A DNA stretch of 59,949 bases, the filler included, from a bacterium (GTDB lineage: Bacteria; RUG730): assembly GCA_031551405.1 (NCBI GenBank). It is 2 parts of 2 records of this genome, joined end to end, with 100 filler letters (N's around TTAATTAATTAA, not from the genome) between each part and the next. Parts side by side here need not be neighbours in the genome. Positions count along the whole stretch, not along the records: positions 1 to 31,085 come from JAVBNQ010000014.1; 1 more part is not named here. One strand, written 5' to 3'. Numbering within the stretch: the first letter of the stretch is position 1; the number at the start of each line of letters is the position of its first letter. The notes beneath the pieces are model-generated. The model was not told where the DNA came from. It did no database searches and saw nothing but the letters and a program-made list of their open reading frames with translations. Positions 4,675 through 40,207 of this stretch are shown piece by piece. Position numbers and translations under genes: made by a program.

Positions 4675-5122
4675 TTTCAAGGCCACGTGTTTTTGTATTT
4701 TCAAAACTTTTTTATCTTTCCGTCCACGTGTTGAAATTTTCAGTTTTCCCGCGCGAGGCGTTCTTTTTTCTCGAAAAACCAACTCCAAAGCCGTAGATTT
4801 TTCGAGCTTTCCCTAGGCTTTTCCTCGCAAAACTCGCTTCATTCCGTTTCGCTCATACAGTTGCGAGCAAGGTTTTCTTATTTAATCCCCACCTAATTTT
4901 TTTGTTCCTTCCTAAATTTTTTTGGTCTACTTTTAGGAGCCTACAGACGATAAATTTTAAAAACCTTGTTTAAATTTTCTCTTTCTCGTGAGATTTTTTA
5001 GTTCTTTTTATGGGTTTTTCTTTTTTCTTCTTTTTTCAATCGCAAAACCCAAAATCCAAAATCCTTTTGTTTTACGGCTCGAAAAATCTTTTTTTGACTT
5101 GAATAGAATTTTATTAGGTCTA
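4675..5122. repeat. Mosaic intergenic repeat, copy B
   Basis: Core 4760-4890 is near-identical to 8895-9030 and to the reverse complement of 31186-31320. The right end GACTTGAATxGAATTTTATTAGGT is shared with ~9503-9526. Confidence 0.9.
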
Positions 5123-8738: not shown

Positions 8739-8851
8739 TTTTGCTCCTTTTTAAATTTTTTTGCCTTCACGACTGAAAAGCAAGAAATTAGGTGGAAAAA
8801 TTTAGAGAATTTATATTTTGTTTTTTTTTGCTCAAAATTTTGTTTTTTCAT

Positions 8852-9527
8852 CTCAAGTCCACGCGTTTTTATGCTCGAAATCTCGTGTGTGGCATTCTTT
8901 TTTCTCGAAAAACCAACTCCAAAGCCGTAGTTTTTTCGAGCTTTTCCTAGGCTTTTTCTCGCAAAACTCGCTTCATTCCATTTCGCTCATACAAATTGCG
9001 AGCAAGGTATTTTTACTTTTCACCCCCGCCAGTTCTTCTGCCCCTTCCTAAAGTTTTCCTGTCTGCTTTTAGGCGTCTACAAACGCTAAATTTTAAAAAC
9101 CCTTGTTTAAATCTTCTAATTTTCGCGAGATTTTTTTGTTTTTTAATTTTTTTTATTTTGTCTTTTTTAAAATGTCTGCATAGCGAAGAGAAGTTGGAAA
9201 AAATTAAAAAAAGCGTTAAAAATTTTCAACTGTTTGAGCCCAATTTTTTGTGGCGAGTTTTGGTCGCTAGCGCGACTCGCAATTTTTCGCGGCTCCGTTA
9301 TTAAATTTTAAAATTTAAACTTTTTGACTCTGCTAAGCATAGCCGTCACGCAGTGACCGAGCAAAGAAAAGTAACAAATAAATTTGATAAACTTTTGGTC
9401 AAAAGCAAGATGACTGTCTTCAGAGTTCGACGGAAAATTTAAAAGTTTTTAAAAACACAAAAACCAAATTCTTTCGTTTTCCAGCTCGAAATTTTTTTTA
9501 TCGACTTGAATGGAATTTTATTAGGTG
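8852..9527. repeat. Mosaic intergenic repeat, copy C (longest)
   Basis: Shares blocks with 4675-5122, 1-275 and 31186-31448. Carries the TGAGC...GCGAGTT module on both strands (8958-9002 minus, 9230-9259 plus). Confidence 0.9.
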
Positions 9528-16068: not shown

Positions 16069-16272
16069 CTATTTCTTTTTCCTTCCGACCAACTCGTCTA
16101 TCGAAATCTCAAAAGCTTCGGCGATTTTTGTGACGGTTTGAATTGTTGGATGCGTTGCCGCGCCTTGCTCTATTTTTGTAATCGCATTGTAAGATAACTG
16201 TGTTTTTTCTGCCAATTTCTGTTGCGACCAATTCTTCTTTTTTCTCAACTCTTTTATTTTTTTAGCTAACAT
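16069..16272 (-). CDS. XRE-family helix-turn-helix transcriptional regulator
   Basis: Classic HTH_3 pattern IKELRKKKNWSQQKLAE...ITKIEQG...PTIQTVTKIAEAFEISIDEL. Confidence 0.93.
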   Translation of the reverse strand: MLAKKIKELRKKKNWSQQKLAEKTQLSYNAITKIEQGAATHPTIQTVTKIAEAFEISIDELVGRKKK

Positions 16273-16308
16273 TTTTTTGCCCCTTCTAGCTTTTACTTTT
16301 TTATGAAT

Positions 16309-18888
16309 TTAATTCTCTGGTTCTTTGTCATCAATATTTTGTTCTTTTATTTTTTGCCTAACCAATAAGTCCTGTATCGTAAACTCTTTATCGCTTTTTA
16401 CTTGATCTCGCCCTGCATTTTTTGCTGCATATAACTGATCATCTGCCGCCTCTATCAATTTATCTCGCAAATTTTTTATTTCTCTATTGCTTCGCTCTTC
16501 GCTTGAAGCACTATCTTTCAAAGTCGCAACTCCAATACTGATCGTAACTCCTCTCCTATGTCTGTTTTTAAAATCTAAAAATATTGGATCTTCTTTGACT
16601 TTCAAATTTATTCGTTCCGCCAAGTATCGAGCATCATTAGCCTTTGTGTTTGGCAAAATAATGACTATTTCTTCTCCGCCATACCTAAATACTTCGTCGT
16701 TTTCTCTTACGAATTTCTTTAAAAATGCGCCCATTGCTTTCAAAACTTCATCAGCTTTGAGATGCCCGAGATCAGTGTTGAATTTTTTAAAAAAATCTAT
16801 GTCTATCATAAGAACGCTTATCGCCTCGCCGCTAGTCGTCGCAAAAACTATTTCTTCAGACAAACGTCTCATCAAAAAGCCTTTGTTATAAATTCCCATC
16901 AAACTATCTTTCAATGCTTTGTCTCGCAGAGTAATCGAATTGATAATAAGAGGAGCTACTCTTAACAAAAGACCCAAGAGTTTGATTTCTTCACCTGTAT
17001 ATTCTTGACCGTCTTCTTTCTCGCCAACAACTATAAATCCTAAAAAAGTAGAATGAAATAATGCCCCTACTAATTTGCCTTGCATTTCGCTCAAAAGCTT
17101 CGCCGTGCCAACTAAATCTTTTGACCGCGTTTTTTCCGCCCAGCCTGCAATCTCTTCGGTCCTCAAAACTTCCTTCATCTCTTTTAAATACGAAACTATC
17201 GCAGAATTTTCTTTTATTGTTTTATATATTGGGCCGAGGTTAGGATAATTAACGTCTTTTTTAGAATGACGCCTTTCCTTTTCATCCGTTAGAACTTTAC
17301 TTTCTTGATATTCGTATTGTTCCGTCTCCTCGTTATAAAGATAAATAGTAATAGCTTTTGCTTTTATTGAGTTAAAAAGCAATTTATCTGTAGCTCCGCA
17401 AAATTCCGCCAAAGTTCTTGCTCGTCCTAAATTTTGGATCGAATCCATCATATTGTTTGTATATTTATTTTTAAAAAATTTGATAAATTTTTCTGCGTAT
17501 TTTTGAGACATAGTCTCTAACATTTTCACGTTAATAATTTCAAATTGCGTTTTTTTGATAATATCGTCTAAATATTTCAAATCCTGCTTATGATAAAGAC
17601 TGTTATCAAGTTTTTTGCCATAACAAACTACGCAAATCATCTCGCCATTAAAAAAAATTGGGAAATAAACTTCGTATTCTAATTGATTTAAAATTTCGAT
17701 AAATTCCGAGTCTTGCTTTAAGGAAATAATGTCTTCTTTATATAGCTTTTTTTTAGTCTCTTTCAAATGTTTTACAACTAGGTTTTCCAAATCTAAAGTC
17801 TGGACACTAGATGTTTCGTTATTTGTTAAAAATAATTTATAAAAATCTCCAGCGTCGCTTAGCATATAACAAGAACTATGCGTTAAATTTAAAGCATCCG
17901 CAACCTGATTAACCACAATTTTTATGATATCTTTGAGGTCATAAGACTGAATATTATTTTTGCTTATGTTGTCCAGCTCAGTCCAAATATTTTTTTGTTT
18001 TCTTAAGAAAAAAGATTCTATTTTAGTAAGTAACCAATCTCTAGTAAAAAATATATAAAAACAAGAGAAAATAGAAAAATATATGCAGGGGTAGTTTGTA
18101 CATTTTTGTAGAAAAAAGAAGGTTGCTGTAAAAACGATACCATTCATTGCAACGTACCCGATGTATTTTGCAAAATATTTCCAAGCTAAGTTGATGTCCA
18201 TAAGATTATATTTGATTATGGCATATGAAACTGTAAAAATATAAATAGGCGTTAAATATATTCCTAGCGGAGCAATCTTGATATTAAAAACTGGGAAAAA
18301 AGCCGTGGATCCGCCAGCAAATCCAATAGCACAGCCCAACAGCAAATATCTTATTTGATTTTTCTCTTGCGAAATATATTTATTAGAATTCATTGCTCTA
18401 AAAAGTAAAAATAAACTATATACAAATGTGTATGTAAAAAAAAGTGTGTAAATATAATAAATTATACCAGAGCTTGGGTAATATAAATTTGCAAACATAA
18501 TTTCAACATCGGGGATAAAATACTCTGGAAATATTAGAGATAACGCTAAAATTGCAAAGGCAACAAAATAATAAAAATGAATTTCTTTTTTTTTAGTTTC
18601 AAAAATTTTTAGTAAGCAGCAAACAAAATTAAAAAAAAGTACAGGAATAAAAATAGCGCTTAAATTCAAAAATCGTCCCCAAAAAAGCGCATTATCTCTA
18701 GTTAGTGAGCTAAATAAAAAATATAGTCCAATTCCCCAAAGGCTCACAGCCAAATTAAATAGAATCCACTTAAAAGATAATTTTTTACTTGAATTTCTAT
18801 TGTATAAAAAAGTCAAAAAACTATTTAAGATGCTTGAAACCGCGATAACAAAACCACCTAAAGATAAATAATTTAAAGAAAAATGCAT
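16309..18888 (-). CDS. Membrane sensor diguanylate cyclase (7TM/HisKA_7TM-like sensor + two GAF-like regions + GGDEF)
   Basis: Multi-TM N-terminus ending YAIIKYNLMDI; DSLMGIYN, MIDIDFFKKFN..GHLKAD, I-site RxxD (REND), active site RYGGEEI. Confidence 0.9.
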   Translation of the reverse strand: MHFSLNYLSLGGFVIAVSSILNSFLTFLYNRNSSKKLSFKWILFNLAVSLWGIGLYFLFSSLTRDNALFWGRFLNLSAIFIPVLFFNFVCCLLKIFETKKKEIHFYYFVAFAILALSLIFPEYFIPDVEIMFANLYYPSSGIIYYIYTLFFTYTFVYSLFLLFRAMNSNKYISQEKNQIRYLLLGCAIGFAGGSTAFFPVFNIKIAPLGIYLTPIYIFTVSYAIIKYNLMDINLAWKYFAKYIGYVAMNGIVFTATFFFLQKCTNYPCIYFSIFSCFYIFFTRDWLLTKIESFFLRKQKNIWTELDNISKNNIQSYDLKDIIKIVVNQVADALNLTHSSCYMLSDAGDFYKLFLTNNETSSVQTLDLENLVVKHLKETKKKLYKEDIISLKQDSEFIEILNQLEYEVYFPIFFNGEMICVVCYGKKLDNSLYHKQDLKYLDDIIKKTQFEIINVKMLETMSQKYAEKFIKFFKNKYTNNMMDSIQNLGRARTLAEFCGATDKLLFNSIKAKAITIYLYNEETEQYEYQESKVLTDEKERRHSKKDVNYPNLGPIYKTIKENSAIVSYLKEMKEVLRTEEIAGWAEKTRSKDLVGTAKLLSEMQGKLVGALFHSTFLGFIVVGEKEDGQEYTGEEIKLLGLLLRVAPLIINSITLRDKALKDSLMGIYNKGFLMRRLSEEIVFATTSGEAISVLMIDIDFFKKFNTDLGHLKADEVLKAMGAFLKKFVRENDEVFRYGGEEIVIILPNTKANDARYLAERINLKVKEDPIFLDFKNRHRRGVTISIGVATLKDSASSEERSNREIKNLRDKLIEAADDQLYAAKNAGRDQVKSDKEFTIQDLLVRQKIKEQNIDDKEPEN

Positions 18889-18960
18889 ACAGAAACCTCT
18901 TTGCCTTTTTTTAAGCGCTCGTCATTGCGAACGAATTGAAAAAACTCATTTCTTTTCTCT

Positions 18961-19038
18961 GTCATTCCTGCGAAAGCAGGAATCTGAAACATTTGTTGTT
19001 AAAGCTTTCGTGCTAGATTTCTGCTCCCGCAGGAATGA
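18961..19038. repeat. REP-like palindromic element (GTCATTCCTGCGAAAGCAGGAATC ... inverted copy)
   Basis: Hairpin ATTCCTGC-GAAA-GCAGGAAT at 18961-18984 and an imperfect inverted copy at 19015-19038. Confidence 0.75.
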
Positions 19039-19076
19039 TGGAATTTTTTAACGAAATGATACAAAAATAAAATAAA

Positions 19077-20861
19077 TTATTGTTTCTCTATATTCAAAAA
19101 TAAAACGCCTTTTCTTTCAACAAAAACATCTTTTATATTTGGCAAATTACTTGCTAAAGCTTTCAAATCCTCTTCGCTTCTATAAAACAAAAACCATTCT
19201 CCACCTAATTCCATATACTTTATTAAATTACTTCCTTTTGAATAATTTCCAATTATAAATAAACCATTTTCGTCTATTTTTTCAAATAATACTTTCATTA
19301 GTCTTTTACAACTATTTTCAGTCAAATATTCAAACAAACCCGAGCTATAAATAAAATGTTGATTCTTTTCTATTCTGTCTCTAACATCCGCTTTTTTTAT
19401 AACTTCATACACTGATTCATTTAAAAATTTAAAATTAGTTTTTCTTTTATATTTCTTTTTTAAACTTTCTAGTTTACCTTTTGAATATTCTAATGCTTCG
19501 CTAGAAATGTCTAAAAGCGTAAAATCGCAATAATCCGCTAAATCATCTTTCATAAATTCTTGAATTTCAATACAAGGACCACTTGCGATACTGGTAATTT
19601 TTATTCTTTTATTTTCTGATCCTTTATTTCCCAAAACTATTTTTTTTATTTTATCTAATAAATATGGAATTCTATCTCTATTTGCTGTTGATAGTTCTAT
19701 GTATAAAGTGTATTTATCCATAACTTTAGCAAACAAACTTTCTCCTTGAGGAACGTTTTTATAAATCATGTTCATCATTTCATAATCGCCCGCATACCCC
19801 AAAGGTTTGTAAAAAACACGATTTATAAAAGGAGATAAAAGCAAAAAGCCATGTAATGCATTTTGAAAATATTTTAGATATTTTATATAGTTTTCGTCTT
19901 TTACATCCAAATGTTTAACAGAATCATCAAGGTTTTGTAAATGAGTATCCATCTTTCCAAAAAATTCTTTTTCTAAAGAATCCAACATTTCGTTTGTAAA
20001 TTTTTCTTTTATTTTTGGTTCTTCTTCTTTTATGTTTTCTTCAAAATCATCCAATATTTTTTTTAGATTTGTAAGCTCTGATGCAAGTTCCTTGACTTCG
20101 TCTTTAAATTCCTTCGGCAAAATCTCGCCAATCACTAATGTCTCTTTTATTTTTGTAATAGTAGAATCGATTTTATTTTCATTTTTTCTAGCCAAAACTT
20201 CATCAACTGGAATGAATCCTTCTTTTACATAAATTCTGACTTCAAAATCATTATTTTTTTGGCGAATATCAGTAATAACCACGTCGCCTTGGAATATGCT
20301 TTTATCATCGATTGTTATGTTGAAATTTTTTAAGGTTTCGCTTTTTTGAAGTGTAAAATGAGGGTTTTTAATAAGAAGTAATGCGCCATACTTCGAAAAA
20401 TTCAAAAGTTGCGCTCGTTGGATTTCGTCGTCGATTGTAAAAGATATTTTTGTTTTAAGATTATTTATCGACTCAATACTAAAACGTTTTGCTCTTTTTT
20501 TGAAAACATTTTCTTGCGACAGAAATTCGAGTCCGATTTTATATTTTTTTTGTCTATTGCTTTCATAATCTTTTAGATAAACAACTTTGCTAATTTCGAT
20601 TATGCTTTCATATTCGTTATTGAAAATTTTTATGTTTTTTAAAATCGTATCTTTTTCAAAAAATCCTTCATTTTCCATCATATAAAACGAAAGTCCTCTT
20701 TCGCTTATTTCTTCAATTTTTTTGATCAATTTACAATTTTTTGGAAAATTTAGATTGATTTCAATGCTCAAAGTTTCGTCGCTAATTCTCTTTAATAAAC
20801 GTTTGTCAGGAGTTGTTAATATGCGGGAAAAATCTCTCTTTTCGTTAAATTTATTTGCCAT
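19077..20861 (-). CDS. Tandem PilZ-like domains fused to a class I SAM-dependent methyltransferase (PhcB-like)
   Basis: PilZ-like motifs RDFSR...EISERG and KRAKR...NFSKYG. C-terminal KPLGYAGDYEMM, SIASGP (motif I), LLDIS, YSSGLFEYL, WFLFYRS. Confidence 0.75.
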   Translation of the reverse strand: MANKFNEKRDFSRILTTPDKRLLKRISDETLSIEINLNFPKNCKLIKKIEEISERGLSFYMMENEGFFEKDTILKNIKIFNNEYESIIEISKVVYLKDYESNRQKKYKIGLEFLSQENVFKKRAKRFSIESINNLKTKISFTIDDEIQRAQLLNFSKYGALLLIKNPHFTLQKSETLKNFNITIDDKSIFQGDVVITDIRQKNNDFEVRIYVKEGFIPVDEVLARKNENKIDSTITKIKETLVIGEILPKEFKDEVKELASELTNLKKILDDFEENIKEEEPKIKEKFTNEMLDSLEKEFFGKMDTHLQNLDDSVKHLDVKDENYIKYLKYFQNALHGFLLLSPFINRVFYKPLGYAGDYEMMNMIYKNVPQGESLFAKVMDKYTLYIELSTANRDRIPYLLDKIKKIVLGNKGSENKRIKITSIASGPCIEIQEFMKDDLADYCDFTLLDISSEALEYSKGKLESLKKKYKRKTNFKFLNESVYEVIKKADVRDRIEKNQHFIYSSGLFEYLTENSCKRLMKVLFEKIDENGLFIIGNYSKGSNLIKYMELGGEWFLFYRSEEDLKALASNLPNIKDVFVERKGVLFLNIEKQ

Positions 20862-20885
20862 ATAAATACCCCACTATATATTTTT

Positions 20886-22217
20886 TTAATAAAACAGATA
20901 TTTCACTCCGAATCTAAGCGAATCTGACGGGAATTCGTACGCAGCTCCATTATCTTTTACTTTGTCGGAAAAATTGTGAGCATAGGAAATCCCGAATACA
21001 AAAGCGTTTATTTTGTACTCAGTTCCTAATGTCAAAGTCGTTAAATCATATTGATCTGTATTTAAAAGATTTGCTCTATCTTGCTGATTGTATGGCGATG
21101 GGTCGCGTCTTATTCCTGCCAGCAAATCAAACGCCTCATTAAGTCTGTATTTTGCTCCCAAACTTAACATTGTTGTAGCTTTCCAATTTAAATTTTGGTT
21201 TATATCGACAAAAGTTGTTCCGCTTGCATCGTATTTAATATCCTCTTTCATACTTGAATAATCTGCAACGTCAGCGCTAAAAGCCAGCATTAAATCTTCC
21301 GTCACGTCATACGCGATTCCAAGACTATAAGTGAATGGATATTTGTAATTTTGAGTATAATTTGTTTTTTCGTGAACATCCGGATTGCCTAATACTGCAT
21401 AAACTCCGACTTGATCGTATCTAGCGTCGCCTTTTATTTTTATAGTCGCTCCACTTCTGATGCTAAAACCCAAACGTAAAGTTTCGATAGGGGAATACAA
21501 AACGCCGCCCATTGCTTCAAGACCATAGCCATCGCCTTTTCTTTCTACCGAAACCTCGTAGGTATTCAAAGGCGTAATAATTGTTGCGTTAGAAGTGTAT
21601 TCTTTTTTTGCTTTTAGCTCGCTCTGCATATAAATTACGTCTAATCCTATGCCAATCGAAACTTGATCGGATATTCGTTTTGCTCCGGAAATATTTGCGA
21701 CTATCAAGCCGTACTCTGAATTTAAAGAAGCTTTTAATTCGTCGCTAAAACCTGGAACAGCATCTGCTTTGACGGTGTCGCTCCATTTGCCGCTTCCGCC
21801 GCCAACTCCATAAATACCAATCGCAAGAGTTATATCCTCTATTTGCGTATATCCGGCTACAAACGGTATAAAAGCGTCGACTGTAAGATTTTTATTGTTG
21901 TAAGATGTTCGTTCTGTGGGATAAATTTGTGGAATTGGGAAATCGTTTTTGGATGGGGTGAGAGGAGAATTATTTTGCAATGAACTTGTACTTTTTGCTT
22001 TTGAATCAACATAAAAACTTGTAAATTCAAAGCCATTGCCTTCAAGCTGAGTTAGACCTGCTGGATTGTAATAAATTGCGGTTGCGTCGTCTGCGCCTGC
22101 AGTGAATGCTCCACCCATGTTTGTCGCTCTGTCGCCAGGCTGTACAAAGATTGAACCAGAAAAAACAGCGGAAGGTAGATAAAGTGAAACCAAAAAACTT
22201 AAAAATAGTTTTTTCAT
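20886..22217 (-). CDS. FadL/OmpP1/TodX-family outer-membrane hydrophobic-compound (long-chain fatty acid) channel
   Basis: Signal peptide, MGGAFTAGADDATAIYYNPAGL (NPA hatch motif), amphipathic beta strands, aromatic C-terminus. Confidence 0.88.
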   Translation of the reverse strand: MKKLFLSFLVSLYLPSAVFSGSIFVQPGDRATNMGGAFTAGADDATAIYYNPAGLTQLEGNGFEFTSFYVDSKAKSTSSLQNNSPLTPSKNDFPIPQIYPTERTSYNNKNLTVDAFIPFVAGYTQIEDITLAIGIYGVGGGSGKWSDTVKADAVPGFSDELKASLNSEYGLIVANISGAKRISDQVSIGIGLDVIYMQSELKAKKEYTSNATIITPLNTYEVSVERKGDGYGLEAMGGVLYSPIETLRLGFSIRSGATIKIKGDARYDQVGVYAVLGNPDVHEKTNYTQNYKYPFTYSLGIAYDVTEDLMLAFSADVADYSSMKEDIKYDASGTTFVDINQNLNWKATTMLSLGAKYRLNEAFDLLAGIRRDPSPYNQQDRANLLNTDQYDLTTLTLGTEYKINAFVFGISYAHNFSDKVKDNGAAYEFPSDSLRFGVKYLFY

Positions 22218-22361
22218 TAAATGATTTCCTCCTTTTCTATGTTATAAATTTTATTAAAGTTCCGTCTTTTTTTTTTTTGAGTTCTTAGTCGTTTATTTTC
22301 AACCTTTATTTACAACTTAAAAACACAGTGTTTTTTATCTATTATGAGGACTGCATTTTTA

Positions 22362-22636
22362 TTTTTTAAAATTTTTAATTATGCGTTGGTCTCTATATTA
22401 TGCTGCTTTCTCTTTTATAAATTTTACTATAATTTTCTAAATATTCGTTACAAAGGTTTTCAAAGCTCACGTTATTAATAGTCAACCCATGTTTTTTGGC
22501 TTCAAGTCTCTTCTCGAGTTCTTCTTTAAATTTTTTGACAAGGCTTGGGTCGCTAGAAACAGCTTTTTCTCTTTACTTTCCGTCTTCTCTCTAAGAAAGA
22601 TACCAAATTTTGTTTTTTTTCTACGATGTAACATAA
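22362..22636 (-). pseudogene. Probable degraded N-terminus of a tyrosine (phage-type) integrase
   Basis: Manual translation KKNKIWYLS*REDGK*REKAVSSD...FKEELEKRLEAKKHGL...SFENLCNEYLENYSKIYKRESS, then a frameshift to YRDQRIIKNFKK. This resembles arm-binding plus core-binding domains and lies just past the tRNA-Asp 3' end. Confidence 0.5.
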
Positions 22637-22693
22637 ATGAAATTCTTTTTTATAAAATCAATCTTCTATATACCTTTATAACAAGTATACTAT

Positions 22694-22712
22694 TTTTGTC
22701 ATTATTTTGTCA
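22694..22712. repeat. Right boundary direct repeat TTTTGTCATTATTTTGTCA
   Basis: 17/19 identical to 16028-16046. Confidence 0.55.
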
Positions 22713-22769
22713 TTAAAATTTTTTAAATCTTGCGAAACTTTATTAAACTTTTTGGCTCAATTTGGGCAT

Positions 22770-22803
22770 AAAAAAAAGATCGTCATTTCTGACGATCTTT
22801 TTT
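22770..22803 (-). terminator. Intrinsic terminator after the tRNA-Val/tRNA-Asp pair
   Basis: Stem AGATCGTCA/TGACGATCT flanked by A and T runs. Confidence 0.85.
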
Positions 22804-22805
22804 AA

Positions 22806-22882
22806 TGGCGGGGACGACGAGACTCGAACTCGCGATCTCGGCCTTGACAGGGCCGCATGTTAACCAACTACACTACGTCCCC
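22806..22882 (-). tRNA. tRNA-Asp(GTC)
   Basis: Cloverleaf GGGGACG...; anticodon arm CGGCC-CTGTCAA-GGCCG; TTCGAG T-loop; CCA encoded. Confidence 0.97.
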
Positions 22883-22907
22883 TAAGATGTGATTAATTTG
22901 CAAATAT

Positions 22908-22983
22908 TGGTGGGCGATAGAGGATTTGAACCTCTGACCCTCTGCTTGTAAGGCAGACGCTCTCCCAGCTGAGCTAACCGCCC
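22908..22983 (-). tRNA. tRNA-Val(TAC)
   Basis: GGGCGGTTAGCTCAG...; anticodon arm TCTGC-CTTACAA-GCAGA; CCA encoded. Confidence 0.97.
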
Positions 22984-23214
22984 AAAAAGATAAAATTTTA
23001 CAAAATATATTGACTTATAGACGAGAAAAATTTTTAGTAGTTCAAATTATCATATTTTTTATAAATTGTCAAGGACTGTAGCTGCAAAATTAATATGCCT
23101 ATTTTTTGGGAACTAGATTCCGAGCAGAAAGATTCAAAAAACATAAAAATTTGAGATTTATGCTTTAATTTAAGAGATAAAACATAAGTTTTTTATGAAA
23201 AAATCTTAAAAATA

Positions 23215-25347
23215 TTAAGTTTGAGATTTTATATCCCAATAATACCATTCGTCATAAAACCTGTTGTCTCGATATAAAGCGATTTTCTTGTCAGGCAAAG
23301 CTTTGAGAGAGAAGGAAATCCAAAATTCACGATATAATTTGCTAGTCGCATCATACTTATCAAAAACCGAAAATTTCATTTCCCAGCAATGCAAATCTCG
23401 ATATATCGCAAATTCGCGCTCTTTTTGTTTCAAAACATCATTCCTCGTGTAATCGTAATCAACCCTAAAACTGTAATCCATTCTCCACTTAAAATTAGGC
23501 CTAAATTTTATCGTTGTGATGGCGTCAACTTTGCCGGGTTCGTGCGGCAGATAACTCACATTTTCACTGAATGAAATCCTAGGACTTGGAAAAAAATACA
23601 AAATATTTTGGAAAAAATCGTTTTTTTCCTGCTGCAAATTATACTGCGTTCGAGTGTAAGAGTTGAAATATTTCCCAAATCTAGCTCTCACTTCAGTTGT
23701 GATAGGAGAAAATCTATCGACGGTATTGTTAGTTTTAAGGTTAAAATCATAGCCGGAATAAGCCCTGACTTTTAGCGCTCCTCGCAAAAAATACGTGTTT
23801 ATATCGATATTGAGCTTCTTTGTATCGACATTTTTGACCGAACCTTCGATGTCAGTTGTGTAGTAATAACTCAAATTCAAATCGATGTCTCGAGTGATGC
23901 GATTGCGTAAATTCAAATTCGTATCAATTTTTGTCTGCGATATTTCGTGATAGACATTGAATTCATCGAGTTTGTTTTCCAGCGGTTTACGAAGACCAAC
24001 AGTTGGCGTAAGAGTGATATTTCTCGTGAGTTTTTGCGATGTAGTCAGATTGAAGTACGAATTTCCGGATAAATAATAATTTTCGTTTATAGTGCTGTAA
24101 TTGTCGACAAAATTAAACCCAAGCTTGTAAAAAAGTCCGTTTACAAAAAATTTATTACGGTTTGTGTCGAAACTGAAACTTGGAAGATATTCGCGAGAAC
24201 GAAGATATTTTAGTTTGGTATTATCCCAATTTTCTTCTCGTTCCCAGAGTAGCATCATTGAATAAAATTCTTTGAAATAATTGAGCGAGGAATACGAGTA
24301 AATATTACTTTTCAATCGTTCGCCGGGATTAGACGAGCTCGGGTCACCGGTGTAAGTAAAATCTCTGTCAAATCCCTCGTCGTTTTGATAATTAATTTTT
24401 ACAAAACTTCTTAAATTTTTTGTGATTTTTTGTGTATGATCGATTCGTAAAGTACGTTTCATTGACTCGTCAATTCTGTCGTCGATTCCATATCCATAAA
24501 TCGAGCCGTTCAAAACGTCCGGTTTTTTGTAGTCGTATTTGAGCCCGAGTCCGAGTCCGCGATTGTCATAGTTGTCGATATAAGCAGTGATGGTTTGGTC
24601 GCGGCTCAATGGATATTTGACTCGCAAATTCTCATACCAACCGTCGATAGAATTTTGACCAATAGAAATTGTAATTTCCATTTTTTGATCTTTTAGCGAC
24701 TGATAAAAAATCGGAAAATAAAATATCGGAATTCCCTTCACAAAAATGAAAACATTGTAAGCCACCAATTTGTCTTCGGTATAAACGATTATTTTACTGG
24801 CTTTAAAGTAAAAATGGGGGCATTCATAATCGCATGAAGTAATTGCTCCGCGCCTGAAAATCGCTTTTTTTACGCCTTGACGTTCCAGTTCTTTTCCTCG
24901 CATCACCCATGGAGCATAAAAAGTTTTGGCATTTTTTATTATTCCTTTCTCATTTTCAAAATCGTAGTCCAGACTGCTACCATGAATTTCGTCTTTAGAG
25001 TCTTCAATCTTTATTTTTCCGTTTGATTTTCCGATTTTTGAGTCTGCGTAAAATTCAATGTCGTCGGCATAAATCGTCATATCTTTGTATTTTACGACTA
25101 CATTTTTTTCCGCTTGGATTTTGTCAGAGTCGAGATTTCGATATAAAACTTCAGATTGAAAGTTGATTTTTTCGCTTAAATCGAGGTTTTCATCAGACGT
25201 AGAATCAATCGAAAGTTCTGCTTCGGTTGGAGTATTTTCGTCGAAATGTTGATGAGATGAAGAGGCGTGAGAGTTAAAACAAAAAAATAATGCAAAAAAA
25301 ATCAAAGAAACATTTTTTTTGAAAAATGTCATTTTTTTAATTGACAT
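23215..25347 (-). CDS. lptD: LPS-assembly protein LptD-like (OstA domain + beta barrel)
   Basis: Signal peptide, jelly-roll OstA region, ITSCD..PHFYFKASKI, PIFYFP, C-terminal RDLHCWE. Confidence 0.8.
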   Translation of the reverse strand: MSIKKMTFFKKNVSLIFFALFFCFNSHASSSHQHFDENTPTEAELSIDSTSDENLDLSEKINFQSEVLYRNLDSDKIQAEKNVVVKYKDMTIYADDIEFYADSKIGKSNGKIKIEDSKDEIHGSSLDYDFENEKGIIKNAKTFYAPWVMRGKELERQGVKKAIFRRGAITSCDYECPHFYFKASKIIVYTEDKLVAYNVFIFVKGIPIFYFPIFYQSLKDQKMEITISIGQNSIDGWYENLRVKYPLSRDQTITAYIDNYDNRGLGLGLKYDYKKPDVLNGSIYGYGIDDRIDESMKRTLRIDHTQKITKNLRSFVKINYQNDEGFDRDFTYTGDPSSSNPGERLKSNIYSYSSLNYFKEFYSMMLLWEREENWDNTKLKYLRSREYLPSFSFDTNRNKFFVNGLFYKLGFNFVDNYSTINENYYLSGNSYFNLTTSQKLTRNITLTPTVGLRKPLENKLDEFNVYHEISQTKIDTNLNLRNRITRDIDLNLSYYYTTDIEGSVKNVDTKKLNIDINTYFLRGALKVRAYSGYDFNLKTNNTVDRFSPITTEVRARFGKYFNSYTRTQYNLQQEKNDFFQNILYFFPSPRISFSENVSYLPHEPGKVDAITTIKFRPNFKWRMDYSFRVDYDYTRNDVLKQKEREFAIYRDLHCWEMKFSVFDKYDATSKLYREFWISFSLKALPDKKIALYRDNRFYDEWYYWDIKSQT

Positions 25348-31185: not shown

Positions 31186-31448
31186 GCGGGGGTTAAATAA
31201 GAAAACCTTGCTCGCAACTGTATGAGCGAAACGGAGTGGAGCGAGTTTTGCGAGGAAAAGCCTAGGAAAAGCTCGAAAAACCTACGGCTTTGGAGTTGGT
31301 TTTTCGAAAGAAAAGAACGCCGCGCACGTGGAAAATGAAAACATCGTCGTGAGGACTGAAAAATAAAAAAGTTTTGTAAGAGCAAAAAACGTGAACATTT
31401 TTTTGTATTTTTGTGAAATTTTCACTTTTAAAACGCGTGGACTTGATA
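31186..31448. repeat. Mosaic intergenic repeat, copy D (inverted relative to A-C; starts at the contig end)
   Basis: 31186-31320 is the reverse complement of 4760-4890; ACGCGTGGACTTGA (~31433-31446) is the reverse complement of ~8853-8866. Confidence 0.9.
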
Positions 31449-31533
31449 CGGAAAAACGACATTTTAATATAACAAACGAAAATATAAATTCTCTAAATTT
31501 TTCCACTGTAAGCAAATTTCGAAGTAAAATAAA

Positions 31534-38174: not shown

Positions 38175-39134
38175 ATGAAAAAATGTTTACAGATGCAAAA
38201 TATTAAACTTAGCGAAATCGATATTTTAGACGATAAATATGTTTATTGTTCTAAAAAAGTTGGCGATGAAAAATTTATAAATTCAGTAGAAAAATTTGGG
38301 ATTTTGAACCCAATTGTCGTAGAGGAAAAAGCGCCAAATCTTTATCGAATTATTTCCGGCGTAAAAAGATTTTTTATAGCTCAAAGTTTAAGATTTGCCG
38401 AAATTCCGTCGTACATATTTGTAAACGAGAATGAGTTTGATGCGCTGTTTTTTTCTATCGAGGAAAATTTGAGTTTTCGGAATTTAGACGAAATCGAAAA
38501 AGCGAATATTTTAACCAAACTTTTGAATGAAATGCAAGCTAACGATGCGATTTTGAAAAAATTTTGCGAGCTTTTAAAAATCTCTTTTTCCGAATTTTCT
38601 ATCCGAAAATACGTGCAAATTTCGAATTTGCCTTTCGACTTGAAATCCAAGATTTTAGAAAATGTTTTGCCGACTGAAGCTGCTTGTAATTTGGCGATTT
38701 TTCCTGTTATCGAGCGAAAAATTGTTGAAAATATTTTTGATCGACTTAAACTAAACATAAATTTATCGAAAGAAATGTCTGAAATTTTGAAGGATTTGTA
38801 CAAATCTGAGACGATAGATTTTCTTGGATTTTTGTCAAAGCTTACAGGAATTAGAGACGACGAAAGTTTTGATAATTTTAAAAAGATCGAAACAATTCGT
38901 AAAATTTTATTCAAAACAAAATTTCCGATTTTGACGCAAAAAGAAGAAAATTTCGCAGAAATAAAAAATAAAATGTTGGAAAATTTGGATCAAAAGAAAA
39001 ACGTTGATTTAAAATATTTTCCGTTTTTTGAGAGAGAAGAGTACGTGCTTTCTTTAAAATTTAAGGATTTACAAAATTTTTCGGATTTGAAAGAAATGTT
39101 AGCAAAATTAGAGAAAAATTTATGCTCAAAATAG
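38175..39134 (+). CDS. ParB/Sulfiredoxin N-terminal domain protein
   Basis: SVEKFGILNPIVV...YRIISGVKR...EENLSFRNLDEIEKA; helical C-terminus of unknown function. Confidence 0.75.
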   Translation: MKKCLQMQNIKLSEIDILDDKYVYCSKKVGDEKFINSVEKFGILNPIVVEEKAPNLYRIISGVKRFFIAQSLRFAEIPSYIFVNENEFDALFFSIEENLSFRNLDEIEKANILTKLLNEMQANDAILKKFCELLKISFSEFSIRKYVQISNLPFDLKSKILENVLPTEAACNLAIFPVIERKIVENIFDRLKLNINLSKEMSEILKDLYKSETIDFLGFLSKLTGIRDDESFDNFKKIETIRKILFKTKFPILTQKEENFAEIKNKMLENLDQKKNVDLKYFPFFEREEYVLSLKFKDLQNFSDLKEMLAKLEKNLCSK

Positions 39135-40207
39135 ACGATATCAAGAAAATTTATATCGAAAAAGATTTGGGAAATAACGAATTTGTTTCGAAATTTTGCG
39201 ATAAATTTCCTGATAAAATAGCGTGGATTAATAATTTCCACGAAGTTCCGTCGCATTATTTTGAAAAGAAAGAGTCTATAATTTTGGCAAATCAAAAAGG
39301 TGCTTTCTTGAAAAAATGTCCTTGCACTCCAGGTTATTTGGGTTGTAAGTATTATGTCGTTGAGCTTTCCGTCGGATGTTTGTATGATTGCTCGTATTGC
39401 TATTTACAGGAATATCAAAACGTTTTTGCGACGACTTTTTACGTGAATTTCGACAAACTTTTCGACGAATTTAACGAGCTTTTGTCATCTAATCCGAATG
39501 AGTTTTTTAGGATAGGTTTTGGAGAGTATGCGGATTCTTTATTTTTTGACGATTTACTCGATTACACAGGCAAAATAAGCACGTTTCTTGCGAAAAATTA
39601 CAAAAATTATTTGATCGAGTACAAGACAAAAAGCGATAATATTTTGAATCTTTTAAAATTTCAGCCAACCGGGAAAGAAGTTGTAGGCTGGACGATAAAT
39701 ACTTTGAAAATTTCCAGGGAAGAAGAGAAGAATGCTGCGACTTTTGAAGAAAGACTTGTAGCTATGAAAAAATGCGTTTCTCGAGGATATTTTGTGGCTT
39801 TGCATTTTGATCCAATTATTGATTATCCGTCGTGGCAAGAAGGTTACAAATTTGTTGTTAATCGCATTTTTGACGAGATTGATCCAAAAAAAATCATTTG
39901 GATTAGCCTGGGAACTCTGCGTTTTAATGCCAAACTCAAGCCGATTATTGAGCATAGACACGATAATTCAAAGATTGTTTATGCTGAAATGATAAAAGGC
40001 GCTGATGGAAAAATGCGATATATCAAAGATTTGCGAAAGGAAAAATATAAAGCAATCGTTACTTTTATCAAGCAACGAAATCCCGAGGCTTTTATTTATT
40101 TTTGCATGGAAGACGAAGAAATTTGGCGCGAAATTTTAGGCTTTGGTGTGAGTTCGTCAGACGAGATACACGATATTTTTTTGCAAAAAATAAAGAGTTT
40201 GGATTAG
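39122..40207 (+). CDS. Spore photoproduct lyase (SPL)-like radical SAM protein
   Basis: GCLYDCSYCYLQ (CxxxCxxC), GEYADS, KTKS, HFDPII, ISLGTLRF, DGKMRY, YFCME. Confidence 0.85.
   Translation: MLKIDDIKKIYIEKDLGNNEFVSKFCDKFPDKIAWINNFHEVPSHYFEKKESIILANQKGAFLKKCPCTPGYLGCKYYVVELSVGCLYDCSYCYLQEYQNVFATTFYVNFDKLFDEFNELLSSNPNEFFRIGFGEYADSLFFDDLLDYTGKISTFLAKNYKNYLIEYKTKSDNILNLLKFQPTGKEVVGWTINTLKISREEEKNAATFEERLVAMKKCVSRGYFVALHFDPIIDYPSWQEGYKFVVNRIFDEIDPKKIIWISLGTLRFNAKLKPIIEHRHDNSKIVYAEMIKGADGKMRYIKDLRKEKYKAIVTFIKQRNPEAFIYFCMEDEEIWREILGFGVSSSDEIHDIFLQKIKSLD

Follow-up and report, generated by a model that had tools for sequence, protein, structure and literature searches.

A putative lipid-signal cassette pairing a PilZ-bearing, PhcB-like methyltransferase with a seven-helix receptor cyclase in a bacterium of the RUG730 lineage

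Can a few adjacent genes form a complete circuit for a self-made lipid signal, in which synthase, channel and membrane receptor lie side by side and the response is cyclic di-GMP (c-di-GMP) instead of a phosphorelay? This question is raised by a locus at positions 16069-22217 of a 59,949-nucleotide (nt) stretch of DNA, hereafter the window, from a bacterium of the GTDB lineage RUG730 (GenBank assembly GCA_031551405.1). The window consists of two contigs, C10 at positions 1-31085 and, after a filler of N, C14, and the locus lies wholly within C10. The host genome (G000) is 1.21 Mb in size, AT-rich and has a completeness score of 100%. An earlier sequence-only reading had described four co-oriented minus-strand genes with gaps of 24, 188 and 36 nt, encoding a FadL-type channel, a PhcB-like methyltransferase with PilZ-like domains, a multi-transmembrane diguanylate cyclase and an XRE regulator, and this layout was confirmed by the coordinates of the open reading frames (ORFs; Table 1). 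We favour, with moderate confidence, the reading that the seven-transmembrane (7TM) cyclase senses a fatty-acid methyl ester which the cell itself makes and that c-di-GMP feeds back on the synthase.

We compared the methyltransferase to its homologues to determine whether it resembles PhcB. For this protein (METHYLTRANSFERASE), 34 of 106 homologues, drawn from the 8000 best candidates scored, bear the JGI label "3-hydroxypalmitic acid methyl ester biosynthesis protein" (PhcB), and two PhcB-labelled homologues are 43-46% identical to it. A 468-amino-acid (aa) protein of Paraburkholderia graminis, which sits in a methyltransferase-kinase-regulator-regulator operon with a phcBSRQ-like layout, is 25% identical over 447 aa (E 3e-48), and the similarity to PhcB-assigned proteins spans the barrel, helical and Rossmann regions. 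The motifs from which PhcB had first been recognised (KPxGYAGD, GLFxYL and WxLxYRS) are present as KPLGYAGD, GLFEYL and WFLFYRS and are conserved; together with the labelled homologues and the P. graminis match they support that assignment. S-adenosylmethionine (SAM) motif I is intact (SIASGP), and both the model and the fold search indicate a class I SAM-binding fold. The AlphaFold model (predicted local distance difference test, pLDDT, 87.5) consists of two beta-barrels, a helical bundle and a Rossmann domain, and its top Foldseek matches are small-molecule SAM methyltransferases and tandem-barrel c-di-GMP receptors. Pfam gave a weak match to Methyltransf_31 only, and a PDB sequence search returned 0 matches at E up to 1. 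By analogy with its family, the enzyme would make a fatty-acid methyl ester.

The two N-terminal PilZ-like domains that had been proposed were borne out by Foldseek, in which the barrels, both six-stranded beta-barrels, matched the c-di-GMP receptors PlzA, MrkH, P4397 and VCA0042 (E 2e-8 to 3e-7). The Pfam PilZ model matched several homologues and did not match the window methyltransferase itself. In the accessible text of one source, the c-di-GMP motif of PilZ is defined as RxxxR plus [D/N]hSxxG within one domain (10.1101/814665). Barrel 1 has RLLKR (residues 21-25) and EISERG (51-56), with E replacing D/N, and barrel 2 has a KKRAKR linker (RxxR, not RxxxR) and NFSKYG (154-159). PhcB-like proteins fall into two size classes, long forms of ~595 aa with two barrels and short forms of ~475 aa with one, and we aligned 16 long and 6 short forms (22 rows): RxxxR before barrel 1 was found in 14 long forms and the [DN]hSxxG-type motif of barrel 2 in all 16, while none of the 6 short forms, which begin with a degenerate homologue of barrel 2, had either. 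As the sites of the window protein are each slightly off consensus, binding of c-di-GMP by its tandem barrels is likely, judging from modelled fold and motifs, and not certain. Long PilZ-bearing forms are also found with kinases (L001, L033, L106 and L107), indicating that the PilZ fusion is independent of the cyclase.

For the cyclase, the N-terminus had been singled out as a possible HisKA_7TM domain, and Pfam placed this domain at residues 15-232 with a score above the cut-off (PF16927, E 1.9e-9; 38.1 bits vs 28.6). A weak GAF_2 match (residues 317-440) and a GGDEF domain (E 2.5e-34) were also found. The model of residues 1-450 (pLDDT 87) shows seven membrane helices followed by a GAF domain (Z ~13), and homologues indicate that there is probably a second GAF domain, which is an addition to the multi-transmembrane/GAF/GGEEI architecture originally described. 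The best structural match of the 7TM model was an adhesion-GPCR 7TM domain (Z 16.5, root-mean-square deviation 4.0 A, 207 residues aligned), and Foldseek by itself gave weak 7TM matches only (E ~1e-3). It should be noted that the likeness to G-protein-coupled receptors (GPCRs) comes from the Z 16.5 comparison, in which helical bundles may score high through arrangement alone, and that a shared fold, as modelled here, shows no function. The active site and I-site were found intact, the latter as had been claimed: GGEEI lies at residues 747-751, with the RxxD sequence REND at 738-741, five residues upstream. D696, K701, N704 and D713, which we take from PleD to be metal- and guanine-binding, are conserved, and the domain therefore has the GG[DE]E[FIL] motif, the metal/guanine residues and the optional I-site.

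Outside the phylum, we examined the neighbourhoods of 160 PhcB-like loci found by motif, comprising the 80 top-ranking of at least 598 matches in genomes and the 80 top-ranking of at least 586 in metagenomes, using our own hidden Markov models built from these loci and the window. A PhcS-type kinase gene came next in 143 of the 144 loci with downstream sequence, and a GGDEF domain was found in none of the 160. The window receptor has no significant similarity to the one PhcS-type kinase with which it was compared, and there is no receiver-domain gene within 16069-22217 and hence no PhcR/PhcQ response regulator. An intact GGDEF protein and not a PhcS-type kinase thus stands next to the synthase, which bears out the proposed replacement of the phosphorelay by c-di-GMP. 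Operons of this phcB-phcS-like kind (L001-L080 and L106-L185) occur widely in Verrucomicrobiota and in further phyla, and fadL is often their neighbour; in one deltaproteobacterial locus (L056:13822-17336) phcB-kinase-regulator and fadL are followed by a FabF-like and HisKA_7TM pair side by side.

Within the phylum, sampled by seven genomes, the methyltransferase was found in five, the two genomes without it being 76% and 55% complete. A HisKA_7TM-GAF receptor gene directly follows it in the window, in two loci of G001 (L096 and L091, in which the GGDEF end lies beyond the contig edge), in G003 (L102) and in G005 (L099), and in G004 (L103) a frameshifted methyltransferase remnant precedes a split receptor. 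The expected co-occurrence of synthase and receptor is therefore seen as a conserved adjacency in 5/7 genomes, including the decayed G004 locus, and since it is kept in relatives in differing genomic contexts, the pairing goes beyond chance.

We also searched the phylum for receptors and examined their neighbours. This gave 22 receptors that include a 7TM region, and the upstream gene could be seen for 21 of these; the count excludes two whose N-terminus lies off the contig (L187 and L203), a fragment (L196), GGDEF-only matches, and G001 C117 and C44. The upstream gene encoded an acyl-chemistry enzyme for 16 of the 21, from five unrelated families: PhcB-like (n = 6), alpha-oxoamine synthase of the BioF/SPT/CqsA superfamily (n = 4), class I HMG-CoA-reductase-like (n = 3), double-hotdog FabA/AfsA-like (n = 2) and a START-LuxD-methyltransferase (n = 1). 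Most of these enzymes have a PilZ domain at the N-terminus or a stretch rich in Arg (RxxxR). The HMG-CoA-reductase-like enzymes in the synthase slot (L191:5800-7665, L199:6603-7979 and L200:5600-7102), two of which are PilZ-fused, are perhaps repurposed as acyl-thioester reductases. The PilZ-START-LuxD thioesterase-methyltransferase fusion (L192:5901-8468), whose sensor groups with PhcB-paired sensors, may offer a way to a fatty-acid methyl ester that does not depend on PhcB.

The host genome itself contains a second cassette on contig C11 (L105:3400-7817), in which a 7TM-GAF-GAF-GGDEF receptor, broken up into four ORFs, comes after a PilZ-fused alpha-oxoamine synthase. At least one of the breaks is at a homopolymer run, and the splitting may reflect a pseudogene, slippage or an assembly error. 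A third receptor, also on C11 (L104:6852-9230), lies behind mutS and has no enzyme partner. In both its 7TM and its GGDEF domain it clusters with G004 receptors whose partners are double-hotdog enzymes. No enzyme of that kind was found in G000, so this receptor may be an orphan or may eavesdrop.

Of the 401 genomes searched, 110 had 7TM-GAF receptors. Outside the phylum we took 60 of the best loci, 59 of which gave a receptor ORF, and the upstream gene encoded an acyl-chemistry enzyme in 36 of these 59: FabF-like (n = 17), oxoamine synthase (n = 4), beta-ketoacyl synthase III (n = 1), thioesterase (n = 1), radical SAM (n = 1), and two each of short-chain dehydrogenase/reductase, ICMT-like, GNAT/LuxI-like, FAD oxidoreductase, methyltransferase and a type that we take to be acyl-ACP-reductase-like (ACP, acyl carrier protein), to which Pfam assigns Shikimate_DH. 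A LuxI/FeeM-like gene and five PilZ fusions are among these partners. The outputs were mostly kinases, with 11 HD-GYP and 3 GGDEF. The commonest version outside the phylum (17 loci within L211-L264) has a FabF-like ketosynthase directly 5' of 7TM-GAF kinases and occurs in many families, and a 12-kb span of one locus (L230, G326 contig C4) holds five 7TM receptor kinases next to ketosynthase genes. The window module represents one form of a swappable cassette made up of an enzyme and a 7TM-GAF receptor.

The sensor domain was found to vary with the enzyme. On a 7TM tree of 16 rows, partner class needed 5 changes, compared with a mean of 9.05 after shuffling (0/1000 shuffles), and genome of origin needed 9 changes (mean 8.6) and was not clustered. 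For the 14 rows shared by both trees, the 7TM tree needed 5 changes (3/1000) and the GGDEF tree 7 (123/1000): the 7TM domain clusters by enzyme class, whereas the GGDEF domain does not. With all seven groups taken together the GGDEF tree was borderline (12 changes vs 14.3; 10/200). The window receptor is itself a mosaic, its 7TM domain being nearest to L103 and its GGDEF domain to L187. In a 42-row tree with outside loci (an earlier tree minus 8 near-duplicate rows; the samples are small), nine methyltransferase-paired sensors needed 2 changes against a mean of 8.3 (0/500). Five of these sensors, which come from distant families and are paired with methyltransferases of three kinds, formed a branch with 99/98 support. 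The sensor of one HMG-CoA-reductase-like partner grouped in this tree with that of a fatty-acyl-reductase-like gene.

The FadL-type channel was confirmed by PF03349 (E 1.1e-35; 123 bits vs a cut-off of 29.7) and by the NPA motif in the translation, and is 57% identical to the product of the fadL gene that occupies this position in G001. The genome yielded no AMP-binding enzyme, acyl-CoA dehydrogenase or DegV. Fatty acids that are imported thus have no obvious use as nutrients, and a signalling role for the one FadL is favoured; FabF, FabH and FabZ homologues are present and can supply acyl-ACP. Within the phylum, the window and L096 have fadL 5' of the pair, in differing surroundings; G003, G005 and the second G001 locus do not, and these genomes carry fadL elsewhere. 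Outside the phylum a FadL gene was found in 79 of the 160 PhcB-like loci, within 8 kb in 42 of the 61 fully flanked loci, and directly upstream of the PhcB-like gene in 48/114. The proposed co-occurrence of fadL therefore holds in part, as the gene is common near phcB-like genes elsewhere and adjacent in only 2/5 in-phylum methyltransferase-receptor loci with a visible upstream gene. FadL is plausibly a helper for passage of the hydrophobic signal. The XRE protein (HTH_3, E 1.1e-17) had been counted as a member of the circuit, a claim which we could not support: the gene was not found downstream of L099, L102 or L103, the three related cassettes with that side visible, and a 76% identical paralogue is present on contig C1. 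We rejected it as a core part and consider it probably incidental to the cassette.

All three GGDEF proteins of the genome are of this receptor type, and there are two HD-GYP proteins; a scan of the genome gave no EAL or MshEN domain. Besides the synthases the genome has a PilZ protein, whose G001 homologue shows weak glycoside-hydrolase matches. This 670-aa PilZ-transmembrane-coiled-coil protein (contig C5, ~22000-24000), with a probable glycoside-hydrolase-like C-terminus and apparently shared with G001, G004 and G005, is a candidate c-di-GMP output.

Under the reading that we favour, the PhcB-like enzyme would take an acyl substrate from the fatty-acid synthesis of its own cell and, with SAM, convert it to a small hydrophobic ester; going by the enzyme's family, this would most likely be a (hydroxy) fatty-acid methyl ester. 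The ester would leave and re-enter across the outer membrane with the aid of FadL, which is the weakest step, and would bind in the GPCR-like HisKA_7TM domain, from which the two GAF domains would relay to GGDEF activity; the ester is suggested as the ligand by the co-variation of sensor and enzyme. Given the fold and motifs of the tandem PilZ barrels, c-di-GMP would then bind the synthase and tune signal production in a loop of either sign, and could be removed by the two HD-GYP proteins. Different acyl-chemistry enzymes would be paired with matching 7TM sensors in a swappable design. A much wider proposal, which we make tentatively and regard as possible rather than probable, is that HisKA_7TM is a widespread GPCR-fold class of receptors for self-made lipid signals, inherited with interchangeable synthases of around ten enzyme families, and that in this phylum the receptors were rewired as cyclases and most of the synthases became c-di-GMP effectors, with lipid "dialects" driving nearly the whole c-di-GMP network via self-closing loops.

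Several observations weigh against the ester-signalling reading. The PhcB likeness comes from JGI labels and the P. graminis reference, not from Ralstonia PhcB itself, and neither Pfam nor NCBIfam had a PhcB model that matched the window methyltransferase. Both of its PilZ sites depart from the full canonical motif, barrel 1 by E for D/N and barrel 2 by RxxR, and in the G003 orthologue the first RxxxR is lost. Besides the loose fadL linkage in the phylum, the window FadL is only ~27% identical to FadLs beside phcB elsewhere. Two further methyltransferase copies (L098 and L101; contigs G004 C141 and G001 C55) stand alone, with no receptor next to them, and 5/21 in-phylum receptors have no enzyme partner. 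The neighbourhood counts are raw, without a background rate for upstream-enzyme or fadL enrichment, and the outside loci are not independent, as 70 of the 80 genome loci are from Verrucomicrobiota. In the trees, the "any methyltransferase" label was merged after the earlier tree had been seen, the methyltransferase-paired sensors are not one clade (2-3 changes), and linkage alone may yield clustering of sensor with enzyme, since the 7TM end of the receptor gene is the one nearest to the enzyme gene.

The same data may be read in other ways. The enzyme product could stay in the producer's membrane, with the 7TM cyclase reading fatty-acid flux or membrane state; this would account for the enzyme-sensor co-variation equally well, many of the partners (FabF-like, serine-palmitoyltransferase-like, reductases) belong to families of lipid biosynthesis, and the loose fadL linkage fits. 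We nevertheless consider local sensing of this kind unlikely, given that the characterised relatives PhcB, CqsA/LqsA, LuxI/FeeM and AfsA yield diffusible signals and that fadL recurs next to phcB-like genes. The methyltransferase could instead quench a signal: FadL would admit a fatty acid from a host or neighbour, the cyclase would sense the free acid, and c-di-GMP would switch on the methyltransferase, which would inactivate the acid by esterification as a form of adaptation. PilZ feedback and a FadL without a catabolic partner fit this reading, and the stretch was detected in invertebrate-gut sequencing runs, all from one study. It is an improbable explanation, failing for the condensing partners (ketosynthases and alpha-oxoamine synthases) found in the same slot, and PhcB is described as a signal synthase in the part of the literature source available (PMC11298618).

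We give very little credence to the idea that a protein, such as the receptor, is the target of the enzyme, which would serve in adaptation like CheR under control by c-di-GMP. One homologue has a weak match to a CheR model (E 0.0064) and a few protein N-methyltransferases appear low in the fold list; the top folds, however, are small-molecule methyltransferases, the homologues are PhcB-labelled and enzymes which are not methyltransferases occupy the same slot. Equally remote is a purely historical adjacency, in which a block moved horizontally near a tRNA would carry functionally uncoupled genes. tRNAs and a probable integrase remnant do lie upstream, the G+C content at third codon positions is low in the methyltransferase gene (0.21 vs 0.32-0.45 in flanking genes), and there are decaying copies in G004 and on contig C11 of G000. 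Against this, the pair persists across five genomes in differing contexts and the design recurs with unrelated enzymes.

Table 1 Features of the locus and its immediate upstream surroundings, with positions along the window
Feature	Position	Strand	Basis or remark
FadL/OmpP1/TodX outer-membrane channel, 443 aa	20886-22217	minus	PF03349; single copy in genome
PilZ-PilZ-PhcB-like class I SAM methyltransferase, 594 aa, proposed signal synthase	19077-20861	minus	Homologues, model, fold
PilZ-like barrel 1, ~residues 21-115	20517-20801	minus	Motifs, modelled strands, fold
PilZ-like barrel 2, ~residues 121-215	20217-20501	minus	Motifs
188-nt spacer with long hairpin	18889-19076	minus	Folding energy
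HisKA_7TM-GAF-GAF-GGDEF diguanylate cyclase, 859 aa, proposed receptor (second GAF probable)	16309-18888	minus	Pfam, model
HisKA_7TM membrane sensor domain, GPCR-like seven-helix fold (modelled)	18193-18846	minus	PF16927, structural match
GGDEF domain: GGEEI, RxxD I-site, D696/K701/N704/D713	16402-16914	minus	Sequence motifs
XRE/HTH_3 gene, 67 aa	16069-16272	minus	Pfam; probably outside cassette
Probable decayed N-terminal tyrosine integrase fragment, limits approximate	22390-22635	minus	Three-frame translation
tRNA-Val and tRNA-Asp, upstream of cassette, context only	22806-22983	minus	tRNA annotation

The hairpin in the spacer between synthase and receptor genes has a minimum free energy of -52 kcal/mol (z -4.4), and its arm occurs in 4 copies genome-wide at ≤ 4 mismatches; it is possibly a REP/MITE-like insert or an mRNA-processing element. 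The fragment between tRNA-Asp and fadL is presumably derived from a tyrosine integrase, which it seems to us to resemble. As no attR (duplicated tRNA 3' end) was found at the far side of the cassette, an intact integrative element carrying the cassette is not supported. Promoter and terminator scans were not above shuffled sequence (36 vs 29.6 and 3 vs 3.8, respectively). In RNA run X2, 84% of the words were present; coverage was about as even over the locus as over the flanks, including the integrase remnant, so DNA carry-over is possible and the run is not usable as evidence of transcription. Elsewhere in the window there are dispersed, MITE-like repeats of 300-450 nt (1-351, 4684-5040, 8823-9263 and 31186-31506), which have many copies in the genome and are often found at contig ends. 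A ParB-N-domain gene followed by a spore-photoproduct-lyase-like radical SAM gene lies at 38175-40207, and a similar-looking pair is found 5' of the methyltransferase in G003 (L097). A class-level relative has proteins labelled "Elusimicrobiota bacterium" at NCBI.

If the favoured reading is true, it would suggest candidate ligands for the common sensor domain HisKA_7TM, for which the literature searched gave no ligand; in the accessible parts of two papers it is merely listed as a sensor domain (PMC5847659, PMC6944256). PhcB-type ester signalling would also reach far beyond Ralstonia, and we found no published description of the fadL link or of the degenerate PilZ-like barrel of the short forms. 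The feedback wiring, in which the receptor would make c-di-GMP and the synthase bind it, was not found in print, and if the wider "dialect" proposal were also true, all 3 GGDEF proteins of a 1.2-Mb genome would be lipid-driven. Because the output is c-di-GMP, standard reporters in E. coli would allow both genes to be tested jointly, non-cognate pairs from relatives serving as controls. No description of this combination of synthase, 7TM cyclase and PilZ was found in the open-access literature searched, subscription literature being outside the search.

We compared the locus to systems which have previously been described. As in the Phc system (phcBSRQ) of Ralstonia and Cupriavidus, a PhcB-like SAM methyltransferase gene lies directly 5' of a membrane receptor gene and a fatty-acid methyl ester is the expected product (PMC11298618, accessible part). 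However, the window receptor is unrelated to PhcS-type kinases and has a GGDEF output in place of a phosphorelay to PhcR/Q and PhcA, and the synthase has an extra barrel and has kept the c-di-GMP motifs in slightly off-consensus form. RpfF/RpfR of Burkholderia and Cronobacter is likewise a synthase-receptor pair in which a fatty-acid signal alters c-di-GMP and the synthase is controlled post-translationally (PMC6361424, accessible part). RpfF is, however, a crotonase-type enzyme, and RpfR a soluble PAS receptor whose FI domain inhibits RpfF by direct contact, whereas the window has a 7TM cyclase, feedback would run via c-di-GMP on PilZ, and no domains are shared apart from those of c-di-GMP turnover.

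The rhizobial long-chain N-acyl homoserine lactone system is of the LuxI/LuxR type and, unlike the locus described here, uses a different class of signal. Its uptake step is similar in that a FadL channel serves a lipid-like quorum signal (PMC9938287, accessible part). Nas343 and Nas354, which synthesise N-acyl amino acids, are also lipid-metabolite synthases fused to PilZ, with c-di-GMP regulation proposed; these GNAT enzymes differ in having a C-terminal PilZ domain, and the accessible text mentions no cognate cyclase (PMC4897644). Predicted pairs of CqsA, PpyS or LuxI homologues with kinases in the candidate phyla radiation (Bernard et al. 2020) similarly place signal-synthase homologues beside membrane kinases in uncultured bacteria with small genomes; "PhcB", "c-di-GMP" and "Elusimicrobia" do not occur in the main text of that paper, and its Table S4 may list some 7TM pairs (PMC7567580). 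Every element of the locus thus has a precedent, namely PhcB, c-di-GMP output with synthase feedback, PilZ-fused lipid synthases, FadL for signals and predicted synthase-kinase pairs. What the locus contributes is the cyclase output, the proposed PilZ loop and the contrast between 7TM and GGDEF domains. By analogy, the locus would work like the Phc or RpfF/RpfR quorum-sensing systems while belonging to neither.

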